Source of the DNA: Escherichia phage vB_EcoM_KAW1E185
Length of the DNA: 64,000 nucleotides
Reading direction: 5' to 3' (one strand)
Sequence record: NC_054922.1
Within the stretch, counting starts at the first letter, position 1. The number at the start of each line of letters is the position of its first letter. A program made the translations under genes and the position numbers. The notes beneath the pieces are model-generated. The model saw only the letters and a list, made by a program, of their open reading frames with translations, did no database searches and was not told the DNA's origin. This document shows positions 8,236 to 63,549 of this stretch, in pieces.

Positions 8236-8250
8236 TCTTTGACGATTTAA

Positions 8251-8280
8251 GGGACCTTCGGGTCCCTTTAGTTGTTTTTA
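8251..8280 (+). terminator. rho-independent terminator after gene 23
   Basis: Hairpin GGGACCTTCGGGTCCC followed by T-rich tract. Confidence 0.7.
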
Positions 8281-9602: not shown

Positions 9603-9608
9603 AACAAA

Positions 9609-9632
9609 GGGACCGAAAGGTCCCTTTTTATT
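9609..9632. terminator. bidirectional terminator between convergent 24 and rnlB
   Basis: Hairpin GGGACCGAAAGGTCCC flanked by A-run and T-run. Confidence 0.7.
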
Positions 9633-11179: not shown

Positions 11180-11210
11180 TTTCAAAATGAAGAAAGGGGC
11201 CGAAGCCCCT
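11180..11210 (-). terminator. terminator after hoc
   Basis: Hairpin AGGGGCTTCGGCCCCT on minus strand followed by T-rich tract. Confidence 0.5.
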
Positions 11211-11215
11211 TATGA

Positions 11216-13086: not shown

Positions 13087-14598
13087 ATGACTGACATTAA
13101 AGTACATTTTTATGATTTTAGTCACGTGAGAATTGATTGTGAAGAAAGTACATTTCATGAACTCCGTGATTTCTTTAGCTTTGAAGCTGATGGGTATCGT
13201 TTTAATCCGAAGTACAAATATGGCCACTGGGATGGACGAATCCGTCTTTTAGATTATAATCGTCTTCTTCCATTCGGCTTAGTCGGGCAAATTAAAAAGT
13301 TCTGTGATAACTTTGGCTATAAAGCCTGGATTGACCCACAAATTAACGAAAAAGAAGAATTATCAAGAAAAGATTTTGATGAATGGCTTTCTAAATTAGA
13401 AATCTATTCAGGAAATAAAAGAATTGAACCACACTGGTATCAAAAAGATGCAGTGTTCGAAGGATTAGTTAATCGTCGTAGAATTCTTAATCTTCCAACA
13501 TCTGCAGGTAAATCTTTAATTCAAGCTTTGCTTGCGCGATATTATTTGGAAAATTATGAAGGTAAAATTCTTATCATTGTTCCAACAACTGCTCTGACAA
13601 CTCAGATGGCTGATGACTTCGTCGACTATCGTTTATTCAGTCATGCAATGATAAAGAAAATTGGCGGCGGAGCATCAAAAGATGATAAATATAAAAATGA
13701 TGCACCAGTCGTTGTTGGTACATGGCAAACTGTAGTTAAACAACCGAAAGAATGGTTCTCACAGTTTGGAATGATGATGAATGATGAATGTCATCTTGCT
13801 ACAGGAAAAAGTATTTCATCTATCATATCAGGTTTAAATAACTGCATGTTCAAATTCGGTTTGTCTGGTTCATTACGTGATGGCAAAGCCAATATCATGC
13901 AGTATGTTGGAATGTTTGGTGAAATATTTAAGCCAGTAACGACTTCTAAATTAATGGAAGATGGACAAGTAACTGAGCTAAAAATTAATAGTATTTTTCT
14001 TCGCTATCCCGATGAGTTCACTACTAAATTAAAGGGAAAAACTTATCAAGAAGAAATAAAAATTATTACTGGGCTTAGTAAAAGAAATAAATGGATTGCT
14101 AAATTAGCTATTAAGCTTGCGCAAAAAGATGAAAACACTTTTGTCATGTTTAAACATGTATCACATGGTAAAGCTATTTTCGATTTAATTAAAAATGAAT
14201 ACGATAAAGTTTATTACGTATCAGGGGAAGTTGATACCGAAACACGCAACGTAATGAAAACCTTAGCTGAAAACGGTAAAGGAATAATTATAGTAGCTAG
14301 TTATGGTGTATTTTCTACTGGTATTTCAGTTAAAAATCTGCATCACGTTGTTTTAGCGCACGGTGTTAAATCAAAAATCATTGTATTACAAACAATAGGT
14401 CGCGTATTACGTAAGCATGGTTCTAAAACAATCGCAACGGTCTGGGACCTCATTGATGATTGTGGTGTTAAGCCAAAATCTGCTAATACGAAAAAGAAAT
14501 ACGTTCATTTGAACTATCTTTTAAAACATGGCATTGATCGTATTCAGCGCTACGCAGATGAAAAATTTAATTACGTAATGAAAACAGTTAATTTATAA
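13087..14598 (+). CDS. uvsW: UvsW DNA/RNA helicase (SF2)
   Basis: 503 aa, T4 UvsW length; Walker A LPTSAGKS and DECH box present. Confidence 0.95.
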   Translation: MTDIKVHFYDFSHVRIDCEESTFHELRDFFSFEADGYRFNPKYKYGHWDGRIRLLDYNRLLPFGLVGQIKKFCDNFGYKAWIDPQINEKEELSRKDFDEWLSKLEIYSGNKRIEPHWYQKDAVFEGLVNRRRILNLPTSAGKSLIQALLARYYLENYEGKILIIVPTTALTTQMADDFVDYRLFSHAMIKKIGGGASKDDKYKNDAPVVVGTWQTVVKQPKEWFSQFGMMMNDECHLATGKSISSIISGLNNCMFKFGLSGSLRDGKANIMQYVGMFGEIFKPVTTSKLMEDGQVTELKINSIFLRYPDEFTTKLKGKTYQEEIKIITGLSKRNKWIAKLAIKLAQKDENTFVMFKHVSHGKAIFDLIKNEYDKVYYVSGEVDTETRNVMKTLAENGKGIIIVASYGVFSTGISVKNLHHVVLAHGVKSKIIVLQTIGRVLRKHGSKTIATVWDLIDDCGVKPKSANTKKKYVHLNYLLKHGIDRIQRYADEKFNYVMKTVNL

Positions 14599-14623
14599 GG
14601 GCTTCGGCCCTTTGGAGAAAAAG

Positions 14624-23124: not shown

Positions 23125-23128
23125 CAAT

Positions 23129-23160
23129 GGGGACCGAAAGGTCCCCATATTTTTATTTAC
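23129..23160. terminator. bidirectional terminator between convergent gene 54 and alt-proximal ORF
   Basis: Hairpin GGGGACCGAAAGGTCCCC plus T-run; same stem-loop core as at 9609-9624. Confidence 0.65.
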
Positions 23161-25592: not shown

Positions 25593-25613
25593 AAATTAAA
25601 GGCCCGAAGGCCT

Positions 25614-25802
25614 TTAATAATCTATTGGTAAGAGAGTACGATATATTTCAAACTTTGGACCTTTTTCATAGGCATCAAATGTTTCTGTGAATTTATTATA
25701 AGCATATGCATCTATAAATTCAATCATAATTTGTGATACAGAAGTAGAAACATCTCCACCTTCTTTTTGAGCAACGACAATTGTTTCTAAGTAAGCTTTC
25801 AT
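25614..25802 (-). CDS. hypothetical protein between gene 30 and alt
   Basis: 62 aa ORF, start overlaps gene 30 stop. Confidence 0.5.
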   Translation of the reverse strand: MKAYLETIVVAQKEGGDVSTSVSQIMIEFIDAYAYNKFTETFDAYEKGPKFEIYRTLLPIDY

Positions 25803-30384: not shown

Positions 30385-30414
30385 AAAATAAAAAAGGACT
30401 CCCGAAGGAGTCCT
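30385..30414 (-). terminator. rho-independent terminator
   Basis: Minus strand hairpin AGGACTCCTTCGGGAGTCCT followed by TTTTTTATTTT. Confidence 0.7.
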
Positions 30415-37224: not shown

Positions 37225-38812
<1,588 letters not shown>

Positions 38813-38839: not shown

Positions 38840-40009
38840 TTAAAAATATTTTTTAAAACTCATCATAACTTTATCATCAACGTCATTATCAATCTGTGCT
38901 ACAAGATAAGATGACAGTTCTACTTCTTGCGGTGCAGATTGAACATTATCAGAATTAAGATATTCACGAATCCAAGGATACGGATGTTTAACCGGAGCAT
39001 CAGTAATTGGGCATGGAAGACCACACTGTTTCATACGAGATACAGTTAAGTAATCAATAAAGCTCCACATGCTATTTGTATTTAATCCAGGAACATCGCC
39101 ATCTTTAAATAAATGAACTGCCCAGTCTTTTTCTTGACGGTTAACTTCCATGAAAATATCAACTGCTTCTTGTTCACACTCTTGAGCAATTTTAACCCAT
39201 TCATCACCATCAGTGCCAAGTTGAAGTTGACGAATAATATATTGGGTGCCTTTAAGGTGAAGCTGCTCATCACGTGCAATGAACTTCATAATCTTGGCAT
39301 TACCTTCCATGATTTCCATGTTCTTATGGAAGTTAAAGGTACATGCGAAAGATACATAAAAACGAATAGCTTCCAATGCGTTGATTACGTGCAGGCAGAG
39401 GTAAAGAGATTTCATTAGTGCTCGTTTAGTACATTCAACAACTTTGCCTAGCTCTTCTTTACGAAATCCTTCTGATAAAATTCCTTCATAATCTTCAACC
39501 GCATTCTGATATTCACGAGTCTTAACTAGAACGTCATCATAATAACGACCAATAGATTCAGCACGTTTCATGATAGCTTTATCTAATACAATCTCATCAA
39601 ATACCTTTGATGGATCAGTATAAAGATTTCGCATGATATGAGTATATGAACGACTGTGAATAGTTTCGCTAAAAGTCCATGTAGCAACCCATGTATCAAG
39701 ACTTGGGTCTGAAATTAACGACATAAGTACAGCAGACGGCGCACGACCCTGAATGCTATCCAAAAGTGATTGATACTTCAGGTTATTAGTAAAAATATCT
39801 TGCTGATATTGAGGAAGCTTGTTAAATTGTGCAGCATCCATCATCAAGTTTACTTCTTCAGGACGCCAGAAAAATGATAAAGATTTCTCAATAAGTTCTT
39901 CAAATACTCTATGCCGTTGAATATCATATCGAGCTAAACCCAATCCAGAACCAAAAAACATCGGCTCAGTCAAAATATTAACAGGGGATGTATTAAAAAC
40001 TGTACTCAT
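38840..40009 (-). CDS. nrdB: ribonucleotide reductase small subunit NrdB (uninterrupted)
   Basis: 389 aa single ORF, T4 NrdB about 388 aa. Confidence 0.93.
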   Translation of the reverse strand: MSTVFNTSPVNILTEPMFFGSGLGLARYDIQRHRVFEELIEKSLSFFWRPEEVNLMMDAAQFNKLPQYQQDIFTNNLKYQSLLDSIQGRAPSAVLMSLISDPSLDTWVATWTFSETIHSRSYTHIMRNLYTDPSKVFDEIVLDKAIMKRAESIGRYYDDVLVKTREYQNAVEDYEGILSEGFRKEELGKVVECTKRALMKSLYLCLHVINALEAIRFYVSFACTFNFHKNMEIMEGNAKIMKFIARDEQLHLKGTQYIIRQLQLGTDGDEWVKIAQECEQEAVDIFMEVNRQEKDWAVHLFKDGDVPGLNTNSMWSFIDYLTVSRMKQCGLPCPITDAPVKHPYPWIREYLNSDNVQSAPQEVELSSYLVAQIDNDVDDKVMMSFKKYF

Positions 40010-46924: not shown

Positions 46925-46962
46925 AAATTTTTGAAATAAAAAAGGGGACCTCTAGGGTCCCC
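46925..46962 (-). terminator. rho-independent terminator after gene 32
   Basis: Minus strand hairpin GGGGACCCTAGAGGTCCCC followed by T-run. Confidence 0.75.
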
Positions 46963-55429: not shown

Positions 55430-55434
55430 ATTGA

Positions 55435-55461
55435 GGGAGCCTTCGGGTTCCCTTTTTCTTT
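55435..55461 (+). terminator. terminator after gene 35
   Basis: Hairpin GGGAGCCTTCGGGTTCCC followed by TTTTTCTTT. Confidence 0.65.
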
Positions 55462-55468
55462 ATAAATA
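55461..55468 (+). promoter_or_regulatory. late promoter TATAAATA for gene 36
   Basis: Exact TATAAATA about 25 nt upstream of gene 36 ATG. Confidence 0.6.
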
Positions 55469-55491
55469 CTATTAAAATAAAGGGGCATACA

Positions 55492-56157
55492 ATGGCTGAT
55501 TTAAAAGTAGGTTCAACAACCGGAGGCTCTGTCATTTGGCATCAAGGAAATTTTCCATTGAATCCAGCCGGTGACGATGTACTCTATAAATCATTTAAAA
55601 TATATTCAGAATATAATAAACCACAAGCTGCTGATAACGATTTCGTTTCTAAAGCTAATGGTGGTACTTATGCATCAAAGGTAACATTTAACGGTGGAGT
55701 TCAAGTTCCGTATGCTGTAAACAACACAAACCCATGCGGTGTTTATCCAGGTAACGGTGATAATGCTACTTTTGCTGTAGCAAATATCGATATTGTTTCG
55801 TGGAATGGTATTGGTTTTAAATCATCACAAGGTTCAGCAGCTCGAACTGTTGTAATTAATGCACGTAATGGTGATATTAGTACAAAAGGCGTTGTGTCGG
55901 CAGCAGGTCAAGTAAGAAGTGATGCGGCTGCTCCTATAGCAGCGAATGACCTTACTAGAAAGGACTATGTTGATGGAGCAATAAATACTGTTACGGCAAA
56001 TGCAAACTCTAGGGTGCTACGGTCTGGTGACACCATGATAGGTAATTTAACAGCGCCAAACTTTTTCTCGCAGAATCCTGCATCTCAACCTTCACACGTT
56101 CCACGATTTGACCAAATCGTAATTAAGGATTCTGTTCAAGATTTCGGCTATTATTAA
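55492..56157 (+). CDS. 36: long tail fibre distal connector gp36
   Basis: 221 aa, T4 gp36 length. Confidence 0.9.
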
Positions 56158-56165
56158 GAGGACTT

Positions 56166-59100
56166 ATGGCTACTTTAAAACAAATACAATTTAAAAGAAG
56201 CAAAACCGCAGGTGCACGTCCTGCTGCTTCAGTATTAGCCGAAGGTGAATTGGCTATAAACTTAAAAGATAGAACAATTTTTACTAAAGATGACACAGGA
56301 AATATCATCGATTTAAGCATTTCTACTGGCGGTAATATCAGTGGTAATATCACTCAAACTGGTGATTATACACAGACTGGAAAATTTAATTTAATTGGTC
56401 CGCAAATTGTAGCAAGCGGTGGATATATTGAGTTTAATTATCGTACTACTGGAAGTGGGGCTTGGTCCGGTCAACATACTGCGAAAGCTCCAATTTTTGT
56501 AGATTTAAGCTCAGCTACTTCCACATCTGAATATAATCCTATAATTAAACAGCGCTTTAAAGATGGAACTTTTTCATTAGGTACTTTAGTTTCTGAAGGT
56601 TCGTTGAAGATTCATTATATCAATGAATCTGGCGATTCGAAATATTGGACGTTTCGACGTGACGGCGGATTTACTGTTGACGGTGGAGGTTTAGCAGTAT
56701 CAGGAGGTAGTATAACTACATCTGGAAATATCGCAGCTATTGGAAATATTACTTCGCCTCAGATTAATACTAAAAATATTATTTTAGATACAAAAGCATT
56801 TGGACAATACGATTCGCAATCATTAGTTCAATATGTTTATCCTGGAACAGGCGAAGAAAATGGTATAAACTATCTTCGTAAAGTTCGAGCTAAATCAGGC
56901 GGTACAATTTATCATGAATTAGCTTCTGCGCAAACCGGAAAAAGTGATGAACTTTCTTGGTGGACTGGTAATACAGCCGTTAATAAACAAATGGGTCTTC
57001 GTAATGATGGGGCTTTAGTATTACGACGCTCACTCGCAATTGGTACAATTACAACAGATGAAAACATTAATAACTACGGCTCCGCTGGAGCAATGGGCGA
57101 ATGTTATATAGTTATCGGTGATGCATCAACAGGCTTATCATACAAAAAAACTGGAGTATATGATTTAGTTGCTAGTGGTCTTTCTTTAGCATCTATTACT
57201 CCTGATAGTTTCCGTAGTACCCGTAAAGCGATTTTTGGTCGTTCCGAGGACCAAGGTACAACATGGATTATGCCTGGAACCAACGCCGCGTTTTTATCGG
57301 TTCAAACACAAGCTGATGAAAACACTGCTGGAGACGGCCAGACGCATATTGGCTATAACTCAGGCGGAAAAATGAACCACTATTTCCGTGGTAAAGGCAA
57401 AACTAATATTAATACTCAAGAAGGCATGGAAGTTAACCCGGGTATTTTGAAATTGGTAACTGGCTCTAATAATGTAATGTTTTATGCTGATGGCGGTATT
57501 ACATCTGTTAAGCAGCTTTCAATATATAATGGCATATATTTAGCAGCTAATAATTCTACTGCTGGGCTAACATTCGCTCCAACTACTACAATTGATGGTA
57601 CTAAGCAAATTTTGTGGGAAGGCGGTACTCGTGCTGGGCAGAATAAAAGCTATGTAACTGTTAAAGCATGGGGTAATTCATTTAACGCATCTGGCGATCG
57701 TAATCGTGAAACGGTTTTTGAAGTAGCTGATGGACAAGGATATTATTTTTATTCACAGCGTGTGGCTCCAAGTGGCTCTGAAACTACTGGGCCTGTTGTA
57801 ACCCAGTTCAATGGACAAGTTAATGCTAGAGGAAGTATTATTACTGACGGAAGTTTTAAAGTTAATGGATTAAGCACTTTAGTCGGTAATGTTACCATGT
57901 CTAATGGTTTGTTTGTCCAAGGTGGTTCTTCTATTACTGGACAAGTAAAAATTGGTGGAACTGTTGATGCATTAAGAATTTGGAATGCCGAATACGGTGC
58001 TATTTTCCGTCGCTCAGAAACAGCATTACATATTATCCCGACTCCTAAAGATGCCGGTGAAAGTGGTGGAATAAGTAATCTCCGCCCACTTAGTATTAGC
58101 CTTAATAATGGTATGGTGCAAATGCGTCATTCCGTTACATTAGGTGATGATGGTGCAGGCGGTAATATGGTGACGGTTGATAATGATTCTAAAGTTATGG
58201 TAATGACGACTAATAGCCGTATTAGTCCTAACTTCCGTATGCAAATTGGACGGTCGTCTTATATTGATGTGGAATGTACTGATGCTGTGAGACCTGCTGG
58301 AGCCGGTTCTTTTGCTTCACAGAATAACGAAAACGTTCGCGCTCCGTTCTATATGAATATTGATAGAACAGATACAAGCACTTATGTTCCTATTGTGAAA
58401 CAAAGATACGTTCAAAATAATAGTTGCTATTCTATTGGTACTTTAATTAATGGTGGTAACTTTAGAGTTCATTATCATGAAGGCGGAGACGGCGTTTCTA
58501 CTGGTGCTATTATAAAGGATCTTGGATGGGAATTTAATAAAAACGGTGATTTTTATTCTCCTGGTAAATTAGGCGCTGGAAATATTAGAATAGGTACTGA
58601 TGGTAATATTACTGGCGGAACTGGTAACTTTGCTAACTTGAACACAACTATCGAATCATTAAAAACCGATATTGTATCGAGTTACCCAATCGGTGCTCCT
58701 ATTCCATGGCCAACGGATACTCCTCCTGACGGTTACGCTATTATGGAAGGCCAGACTTTTGATAAGTCTGCATACCCAAAATTGGCTATGGCTTACCCAT
58801 CTGGCGTAATTCCAGATATGCGCGGGCAAACTATTAAAGGTAAACCAAGTGGTCGAGCTGTATTAAGCGCAGAAGCCGATGGTGTTAAGGCTCATAGCCA
58901 TAGTGCATCGGCTTCAAGTACTGACTTGGGTACTAAAACTACGTCGAGTTTTGATTATGGTACTAAGACGACAAGTAGCTTTGACTATGGCACTAAGACT
59001 AGCAATACCACAGGTAACCACTCTCATACTGTAAGCGGTACTACGAGTTCTGCTGGTGCACACCAACATGCGCGCTCAGGTCCTCAGATACAAGCCGGCA

Positions 59101-59438
59101 TACCCAATAACATATTCTATGACGGATATAATAGTGTAGGTGCAAACGCCAACGCTAAATTCACTGGAACCGTGAACGGTGCTACTGTAGGGTCGAATAT
59201 AGCCAAAACTTCTTCAGACGGTGCTCATACTCATACTTGGTCTGGTACTACAAGCACTACAGGTAACCATGCTCACACAGTAGGTATTGGTGCTCATACC
59301 CATACTGTAGGTATCGGTGCTCATACCCACACGGTAGCAATTGGCTCGCATGGTCATACTATCACTGTAAATAGTACAGGTAATACAGAAAACACGGTTA
59401 AAAACATTGCTTTTAACTATATCGTTCGTTTAGCATAA
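56166..59438 (+). CDS. 37: long tail fibre distal subunit gp37 (receptor-binding tip)
   Basis: 1090 aa (T4 gp37 about 1026); C-terminal His-box repeats; ends [11 protein letters not shown] as recalled for T4. Confidence 0.93.
58929..59003 (+). repeat. tandem 30-bp coding repeat in gene 37 ([10 protein letters not shown] x2.5)
   Basis: Two 30-bp units encode identical peptides but differ at about 9 synonymous positions. Confidence 0.85.
59280..59360 (+). repeat. tandem 27-bp His-box repeats in gene 37 (VGIGAHTHT x3)
   Basis: Three consecutive 27-bp units; further HxH motifs upstream. Confidence 0.85.
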
Positions 59439-59465
59439 GGAGAGGGGCTTCGGCCCCTTCTGAAT
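59437..59465 (+). promoter_or_regulatory. gene 38 translation initiation region with hairpin between SD and AUG
   Basis: AAGGAG at 59437-59442, hairpin GGGGCTTCGGCCCC at 59444-59457, ATG at 59466. Confidence 0.55.
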
Positions 59466-60017
59466 ATGAAAATATATCATTATTATTTTGACACTAAAGA
59501 ATTTTACAAAGAAGAAAATTACAAACCGGTTAAAGGACTCGGTCTTCCTGCTCATTCAACAATTAAAAAACCTTTAGAACCTAAAGAAGGATACGCAGTT
59601 GTATTTGATGAACGTACTCAAGATTGGATTTATGAAGAAGACCATCGCGGCAAACGAGCATGGACTTTTAATAAAGAAGAAATTTTTATAAGTGACATTG
59701 GAAGCCCGGTTGGTATAACCTTTGATGAGCCCGGCGAATTTGATATATGGACTGATGACGGTTGGAAAGAAGACGAAACATATAAACGCGTTTTAATTCG
59801 CAATAGAAAAATTGAAGAATTATACAAAGAATTCCAAGTTTTAAATAATATGATTGAAGCTTCTGTCGCGAATAAAAAGGAAAAATTCTATTATAAAAAC
59901 CTTAAGCGGTTCTTTGCTCTTTTAGAAAAGCATGAGCATTTAGGTGGTGAATTCCCTTCATGGCCTGAAAAAGAACGGAAACCTTGGTATAAGCGTTTAT
60001 TCAAGCATTACGTATAA
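59466..60017 (+). CDS. 38: tail fibre assembly chaperone gp38 (T4-type)
   Basis: 183 aa, T4-type gp38 length; MKIYHYYFDTKEFYKEENYKP matches recalled T4 gp38. Confidence 0.9.
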   Translation: MKIYHYYFDTKEFYKEENYKPVKGLGLPAHSTIKKPLEPKEGYAVVFDERTQDWIYEEDHRGKRAWTFNKEEIFISDIGSPVGITFDEPGEFDIWTDDGWKEDETYKRVLIRNRKIEELYKEFQVLNNMIEASVANKKEKFYYKNLKRFFALLEKHEHLGGEFPSWPEKERKPWYKRLFKHYV

Positions 60018-63505: not shown

Positions 63506-63544
63506 AAATTTTTGAAATAAAAAAGGGAGAGCCGAGGCTCTCCC
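63506..63544 (-). terminator. rho-independent terminator upstream of motA promoter
   Basis: Minus strand hairpin GGGAGAGCCTCGGCTCTCCC followed by TTTTTTATTT. Confidence 0.7.
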
Positions 63545-63549
63545 TAAAA

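Follow-up and report, generated by a model that had tools for sequence, protein, structure and literature searches.

Hairpin-bridged Shine-Dalgarno sequences at gene 38 and, as a candidate case, at denA in a T4-like Escherichia phage

Introduction

How is a gene started when its only Shine-Dalgarno (SD) sequence lies 23 nt from the AUG with a perfect hairpin in between? Two gene junctions raise this question, that between gene 37 and gene 38 and that between nrdB and denA, both in a 64,000-nucleotide stretch of Escherichia phage vB_EcoM_KAW1E185 (NC_054922.1) that we analyzed whole and refer to as the window. The window corresponds approximately to T4 coordinates 99-163 kb. Its region at ~58.9-60.1 kb shares 99.4% identity with the T4 gene 37-38-t region, and its nrdB-denA-rnlA region matches Escherichia phage teqskov at 100% and T4T at 97.3%; judged by these identities, the genome is that of a Tequatrovirus near T4 but distinct from it.

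Hairpin-bridged SDs are among the few natural cases in which mRNA structure promotes bacterial initiation rather than blocking it. The initiation region of T4 gene 38 is reportedly the subject of work from the Gold laboratory and of Nivinskas et al. in 1999, and the split initiation region of gene 25 is said to have been treated by Nivinskas et al. in 1999 and by Malys and Nivinskas in 2009. RNA structure cuts the SD-AUG distance from 22 to 5 nt at T4 gene 38 and from 27 to 11 nt at gene 25, mutations that destabilize the intervening structure reduce initiation at both genes, and the gene 25 arrangement is limited to close T-even phages (Uzan and Miller, PMC3014915). Genes 38 and 25 are the only hairpin-bridged cases cited in the T4 literature that we searched.

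Results

Gene 38 and denA share one initiation architecture

The elements of the gene 38 initiation region are as follows.

59436-59438 (+): stop codon TAA of gene 37 (open reading frame 56166..59438, long tail fibre distal subunit), overlapping the SD by 2 nt
59437-59442 (+): gene 38 SD, AAGGAG; with the preceding U it reads UAAGGAG, 7 nt complementary to the 16S rRNA 3' end
59443 (+): single A between SD and hairpin
59444-59457 (+): hairpin GGGGC-UUCG-GCCCC with a cUUCGg tetraloop (stem GGGGC 59444-59448, loop TTCG 59449-59452, stem GCCCC 59453-59457)
59458-59465 (+): U-rich spacer TTCTGAAT (as RNA, UUCUGAAU), the SD-free interval between hairpin and AUG
59466..60017 (+): gene 38, tail fibre assembly protein, 183 aa, 100% identical to T4 gp38; ATG 59466-59468

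Those of the denA region lie on the other strand.

38842-38840 (-): stop codon TAA of nrdB (open reading frame 38840..40009), overlapping the SD by 2 nt
38841-38836 (-): denA SD, AAGGAG; TAAGG is nearly invariant in 21 distinct junctions
38835 (-): single T between SD and hairpin
38834-38821 (-): hairpin GGGCC-GCAA-GGCCC with a GNRA tetraloop (stem GGGCC 38834-38830, loop GCAA 38829-38826, stem GGCCC 38825-38821)
38820-38813 (-): U-rich spacer ATTTTATT (as RNA, AUUUUAUU), SD-free, partly a terminator-like tail for the hairpin
38402..38812 (-): denA, endonuclease II, 136 aa; ATG 38812-38810

Both sites thus consist of UAAGGAG overlapping the upstream UAA, 1 nt, a 14-nt GC tetraloop hairpin, 8 U-rich nt and AUG. 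An earlier note on this DNA, made from the sequence alone, had named AAGGAG as the sole SD of gene 38, 23 nt from the ATG with a perfect hairpin between, and had described denA as identically arranged on the minus strand. The coordinates given for both sites proved exact, and the 23-nt interval at denA has the same 1 + 14 + 8 composition, again with a single SD and a perfect hairpin. The loops belong to the two classic extra-stable tetraloop types, and each stem can be extended by one pair (A-U at gene 38, to 59443-59458; U-A at denA, to 38835-38820). No SD-like motif is found between hairpin and ATG in either spacer, UUCUGAAU or AUUUUAUU. For gene 38 no start further upstream is available: its frame is closed at -30 by gene 37's own TAA, and the ATG is the first start codon that follows. 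The earlier note had considered that another in-frame start with a conventional SD might be used instead; we found none, the GTG upstream of the denA ATG having no usable SD spacing.

Structure prediction, which the earlier note had proposed as a check, gave stable core hairpins at both sites. The 32-nt gene 38 segment folds with a predicted energy of -13.3 kcal/mol (z -2.2) and the 33-nt denA segment with -16.4 kcal/mol (z -4.2, with 0 of 200 shuffles as good), the hairpins themselves being predicted at -9.6 to -12.2 kcal/mol. Within 80-, 160- and 300-nt contexts the core stems at both sites are predicted to be unpaired with a probability near zero. Looping out the hairpins leaves a spacing of 6-9 nt, and the predicted SD/anti-SD duplexes amount to -9.3 kcal/mol at gene 38 and -8.7 kcal/mol at denA. 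An SD more than ~15 nt from the start, lack of an SD at canonical spacing, an intervening stem-loop that leaves ~5-11 single-stranded nt and an authentic downstream start are marks of split initiation, and each was found at both junctions.

The arrangement is rare in the window and in T4

As a composite motif we took a perfect GC-rich tetraloop hairpin preceded at a distance of at most 3 nt by an SD core and followed after 4-10 nt by an ATG. The window has two such motifs, solely at the gene 38 and denA sites, against a mean of 0.02 and a maximum of 1 in 200 first-order Markov simulations. The hairpin component by itself is abundant: GC tetraloop hairpins number 34 strand instances versus 4.4 simulated (about 8-fold), or 17 loci versus about 2. 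Among the 17 loci only gene 38 and denA have an SD at most 2 nt 5' and an AUG 7-8 nt 3'. No Rfam match reached the gathering score anywhere in the window.

A census of open reading frames and their ATGs in the window and the whole of T4, checked by eye against the T4 annotation, asked for a real gene start, a distant SD, an intervening hairpin and the absence of a canonical SD. Only denA, gene 38 and gene 25 fit. The last, a positive control recovered by the same scan, has the following elements.

16239-16236 (-): gene 25 SD, GAGG
16234-16217 (-): gene 25 hairpin, CUCAAAG-AAUU-CUUUGAG
16208-16206 (-): gene 25 AUG, overlapping the gene 26 stop (UAAUG)

A covariance model trained on denA junctions alone gave a concordant picture, ranking the gene 38 junction second in ~173 kb of sequence (the window plus the remainder of T4) with 34 bits and an E value of ~7e-4, in an alignment extending from UAAGGAG through AUG. 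The third and fourth matches either lack the SD or end in an AUG that is not a gene start. The third is the T4 gene 39.1/39 junction (L048, 5372-5414, minus strand), which reads UAA, AAAGGCC-UUCG-GGCCUUU, UUUAUG; it has no SD, its AUG differs from the annotated gene 39 start, and the likeness is superficial only.

The denA element is conserved and covaries

For denA we compared 36 IMG/VR loci with DenA identities of 60-100%, among which 21 junctions are distinct. TAAGG(A/G), a GC tetraloop hairpin, 6-9 nt and ATG are kept in 35 of the 36. In 19 of the 21 distinct junctions (L013 and L023 were left out, a simple hairpin finder having mis-assigned both), the linear SD-AUG spacing is 20-25 nt and falls to 5-9 nt with the hairpin looped out, and the SD stays within 2 nt of the stem. 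Across the 21 junctions the 7-bp helix is paired in 93.5% of cells; four of its seven pairs change on both sides, in 24 cells, a degree of covariation reached by 0 of 500 shuffles, and slid-register controls collapse. Conserved geometry with compensatory changes, a further mark of split initiation, was therefore present mainly by virtue of these junctions.

Gene 38 comparators were drawn from GenBank phage records, IMG/VR having supplied only 2 gp38 loci. The hairpin is kept in phages with a T4-type gene 38, and this junction offers only one compensatory pair, a G-C to A-U change. Compared with T4, the window carries the same gene junction at 59437-59468, with AAGGAG, a cUUCGg hairpin and AUG, and differs in one extra C: the T4 stem is an imperfect GGGGC/GCCC with a 22-nt interval, that of the window a perfect GGGGC/GCCCC with 23 nt. 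At gene 38 the window thus has a textbook feature of T4, the published split initiation region whose mechanism, a reduction from 22 to 5 nt that destabilizing mutations impair, is described by the T4 review (PMC3014915); the earlier note had correctly matched it to that mechanism. The note's further suggestion, that the arrangement recurs at denA, is supported by the geometry shared by 35 of 36 loci, by the stem covariation and by the recovery of gene 38 with the denA covariance model. On present evidence the denA element appears more deeply conserved than those at genes 38 and 25, and it would be the third split initiation region in a T4-type genome after these two. We found no description of a denA split initiation region in the literature searched, which leaves an earlier mention possible.

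A model for initiation across a folded hairpin

These features are consistent with a model of hairpin-bridged, or split, translation initiation at both sites, each within a polycistronic mRNA. The only SD, UAAGGAG, would be too distant from the AUG, at 23 nt, to work on linear mRNA. A very stable GC tetraloop hairpin of 5-6 bp would take up 14-16 of the 23 nt, leaving SD and AUG separated by 6-9 single-stranded nt plus the width of the helix, and the 30S subunit could pair with the SD while the hairpin is folded and so have the AUG placed in its P site. The hairpin would be an older intercistronic element, on whose 5' side the SD ended up in T4-type lineages. Some coupling to upstream translation is likely as well, since the stop codon overlaps the SD and a terminating upstream ribosome must therefore melt the hairpin.

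We hold the split-SD reading of gene 38 with high confidence. Use of the denA SD through a folded hairpin is an extrapolation from architecture and comparison, and for denA on its own we lean only somewhat towards it. Taken for the two sites together, split initiation seems to us a reasonably probable account.

A more specific version, which we regard as doubtful, would make the UAA/SD, hairpin and AUG a dedicated intercistronic hand-over cassette built on an ancient end-of-cistron hairpin. The SD that goes with this hairpin could lie on either side of it according to lineage, and in T-even phages it would have become fused to the stop codon of the upstream gene. The terminating ribosome would melt the hairpin, and its refolding would recapture a 30S subunit on the SD with the AUG in place. 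If this were true, the downstream gene, a toxic nuclease or a low-dose chaperone, would be fixed at a low ratio to the upstream one.

Hairpins are also found without SD bridging

Several observations weigh against the split-initiation model. T2, T6 and RB68 (L059-L061) keep a GC tetraloop hairpin after the gene 37 stop, with the SD (AAGGA, GGAG or GGAGG) placed beyond the hairpin, 5-6 nt before the ATG. Their gene 38 is of the non-homologous adhesin type, so the hairpin belongs with the end of gene 37, whichever type of gene 38 follows. In Citrobacter phage Moon (gp38 identity 34%), too, the hairpin comes first and the SD after it. In the RB49-like Krischvirus phages JK32 and G5211 (L053/L054), TAAGG and a GC hairpin with a GAAA loop are followed by UUUGUUGU and a canonical GAGGAAAGGA SD; this junction lies 50-70 nt upstream of denA, and the gene before it is hypothetical and not nrdB. 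Since TAAGG stands 5' of the hairpin there despite the downstream SD, its conservation elsewhere is weaker proof of SD function, and the persistence of hairpins where the SD is downstream means that bridging is not their only or original role. The 5' SD is itself weak in some denA lineages (AAGGU or AAGAGAG, -3.9 to -4.8 kcal/mol). L025 (IMGVR_UViG_2974786931_000001), the sole denA relative without the hairpin, has no SD and a bare nrdB stop/denA start overlap, TTATGA, from which it follows that coupling alone can express denA. In the minimum-free-energy folds part of GGAG is taken up by G-U pairing with the U-run that lies downstream, and this could, on these predictions, lower SD accessibility. 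Finally, the literature searched yielded no published experiment on denA initiation.

Farther afield, no hairpin was found at the denA junction in the Aeromonas phages and Slopekvirus that we examined. The comparisons as a whole indicate that the hairpin has been conserved in its own right as an element at the ends of cistrons and that the side on which the SD lies is specific to the lineage. Its older role may well be mRNA 3'-end protection or weak attenuation, which would be compatible with SD bridging.

Possible transcript-level roles of the hairpins

The alternative that fares best would have the hairpins serve mainly as transcript elements, either weak terminators or attenuators or barriers to 3' exonucleases that stabilize the nrdB or gene 37 message. 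The SD would then be incidental, composed of the stop codon and the 5' flank of the stem, and the downstream gene would be translated only by termination-reinitiation. The abundance of GC tetraloop hairpins as a feature of the genome (34 strand instances versus 4.4), many of them starting AAGGG, fits this account, as do the hairpins that persist where the SD is elsewhere and the bare TTATGA overlap of L025. The record of Mosigvirus ATK47 labels the nrdB-denA hairpin an ARNold terminator, and the U-rich tail AUUUUAUU allows denA a terminator score of up to +25.

These scores, however, vary too much for termination to be a conserved property. They were calculated in the style of d'Aubenton-Carafa with modern energy parameters and are approximate. 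Against a standard of at least ~5 U in the 8 nt directly after the hairpin, gene 38, with the tail UUCU, falls short and scores -9 to -21. The denA tail scores -5 to +25, according to which base is chosen as the end of the stem, and its relatives -43 to +23; all end-of-gene-37 hairpins, that of gene 38 included, score as non-terminators (-9 to -30). A consensus terminator scan called neither site, and T4 transcript 3'-end maps, sought in the same literature, were not found. We accordingly rejected the terminator reading for gene 38, on the lack of a consensus call and its negative score; for denA, likewise not called, the score is ambiguous and the relatives are inconsistent. A pure stabilizer, for its part, would have no need of the tightly conserved 6-9 nt between hairpin and AUG or of an SD at most 2 nt from the stem, and in the published work the gene 38 structure improves initiation (PMC3014915). 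We therefore consider it unlikely that the hairpins are mainly transcript elements; such a role is partly compatible with split initiation, and the hairpin may serve both.

A possible SD-occluding helix and a possible RegB site

An opposite role for the structure is improbable. Here a repressive extension of the stem would hide the SD in the U-rich spacer, and denA and gene 38 would be translated only once an upstream ribosome had opened the helix. Minimum-free-energy and centroid folds do pair GGAG with UUUU at denA and GGA with UCU at gene 38, the unpaired probability of the SD is low in denA contexts, and T4 has SD-sequestering hairpins at e, soc, 49 and I-TevI (PMC3014915). The extension is nevertheless just 62% paired, no better than shuffled or slid controls, which points to nothing beyond purine/U compositional complementarity. 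It consists mostly of G-U pairs, which are weak beside the -8.7 to -9.3 kcal/mol of a 7-bp SD/anti-SD duplex, and the published data on genes 38 and 25 indicate enhancement (PMC3014915). The validated gene 25 site folds similarly, with its SD partly paired. The SD-occluding extended helix was rejected for its lack of covariation; given this and the likeness of gene 25, SD occlusion is a minor modulating effect at most.

Strong RegB sites conform to the A-rich consensus GG*AGRAYARAA in an unstructured intergenic setting (PMC3014915), and a strong RegB/S1 site was rejected at both junctions because GGAGUGGGCCG (denA) and GGAGAGGGGCU (gene 38) misfit this consensus and have a GC helix on their 3' side. 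On the doubtful hand-over reading, a helix in place of the usual A-rich 3' context might also shield the denA SD from RegB. A gene-60-like bypass, with take-off at an nrdB UUU and an in-frame UUU past the hairpin, was dropped because relatives do not preserve the pair of matching codons.

The start codon of denA

T4 RefSeq (NC_000866.4) starts denA, at 144 aa, with an in-frame codon 24 nt upstream of the ATG used above.

38836-38834 (-): in-frame GTG within AAGGAGTG; T4 NC_000866.4 137949-137951

It is very improbable that denA starts at this GTG, with the hairpin as coding sequence and reinitiation 3 nt past the nrdB stop: RefSeq annotates it so, the frame is open between GTG and ATG and in an RB69-like group this position is occupied by an in-frame ATG, but overlap of the GTG with the SD (AAGGAGTG) leaves a spacing of zero, an in-frame start at -24 is found only in Tequatrovirus (GTG) and that one group (ATG), the other lineages having a closed frame or an intergenic length that is not a multiple of three, and the stem positions change as compensating RNA pairs, a pattern that is not protein-like. 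DenA protein homology, moreover, begins at MKEIA/MKDIA, and the EndoII construct of PDB 2WSH begins with MKEIA after its tag, which is the depositors' choice and not the outcome of N-terminal sequencing. With the GTG thus rejected on spacing and conservation, the real start of denA is probably the ATG (136 aa), favored by the zero spacing and poor conservation of the GTG, by a stem that evolves as RNA and by homology from MKEIA/MKDIA. The T4 RefSeq start is probably a mis-annotation that may have spread to other records.

The RB69-like denA junctions (L008-L010, L014, L015 and L036) carry their in-frame ATG at -24 within AAGGAATGGGGC, again with no SD spacing; it may be a coincidence or a minor reinitiation start.

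Discussion

Relation to known systems

Like denA and gene 38, gene 25 combines a distant SD (GAGG, 27 nt) with an intervening stem-loop and no canonical SD. It differs in that its hairpin is AU-rich, at ~-7 kcal/mol, and falls within the gene 26 coding sequence, whose stop overlaps the AUG, whereas at denA and gene 38 the hairpin is an intergenic GC tetraloop hairpin and it is the SD that the stop overlaps. The arrangement at denA also reaches relatives with ~60% DenA identity, that at gene 25 only close T-even phages.

Hairpins with cUUCGg and GNRA tetraloops between the cistrons of T4 mRNAs were reportedly described by Tuerk et al. in 1988. Those at gene 38 and denA are likewise extra-stable, with GC stems and UUCG or GNRA loops, and differ from the rest in that only they are flanked by an SD and an AUG. 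Rho-independent terminators similarly join a GC-rich hairpin to U-rich sequence; here, however, gene 38 has a poor U-tract, that of denA varies among its relatives, and the gene just downstream must still be expressed from the shared transcript. Coupling by stop/start overlap (ATGA, TAATG) likewise places the upstream stop inside the downstream initiation region, but at these two junctions stop and start are 27 nt apart across a stable hairpin.

The denA site would add to the two bridged cases a third that is far more deeply conserved and shows clear covariation, making it a better comparative test case. As to annotation, our findings speak for shifting the start of denA from GTG to ATG in T4 RefSeq and the records copied from it; the nrdB-denA junction has been mislabelled by gene callers and terminator predictors alike. 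The SDs that lie on different sides of a conserved hairpin according to lineage offer a system for asking how initiation regions arise. The finding is a modest one and leaves the general picture of T4 gene expression unchanged.

Other tetraloop hairpins and neighboring genes

Many of the tetraloop hairpins in the window are cUUCGg hairpins, many start with AAGGG and most are intergenic; several with strong U-tracts look like real terminators. Examples are listed here.

8249-8268, 9606-9627, 11194-11211, 14597-14612, 23127-23148: tetraloop hairpins
25595-25618, 30395-30414, 46944-46962, 63524-63545: further tetraloop hairpins

The gene 35-36 junction at 55433-55503 (+) contains a cUUCGg hairpin, GAGGGAGCC-UUCG-GGUUCCCUU, with a U-tract running into the late-promoter-like TATAAATA, after which come a canonical AAAGGGG SD and the ATG of gene 36. 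The junction looks like a combined terminator and late-promoter cassette.

Two of the genes adjoining the initiation regions differ from their T4 counterparts. In the window nrdB (38840-40009, minus strand) is a single uninterrupted open reading frame of 389 aa, and the phage is therefore one without the nrdB intron; T4 nrdB is split by a group I intron with I-TevIII. Gene 37 (56166-59438, plus strand) encodes 1090 aa, compared with 1026 aa in T4 (156542-159622), and over its last ~540 nt, gene 38 and the beginning of gene t the identity to T4 is 99.4%, which suggests, at the level of sequence, a mosaic tail-fibre gene.

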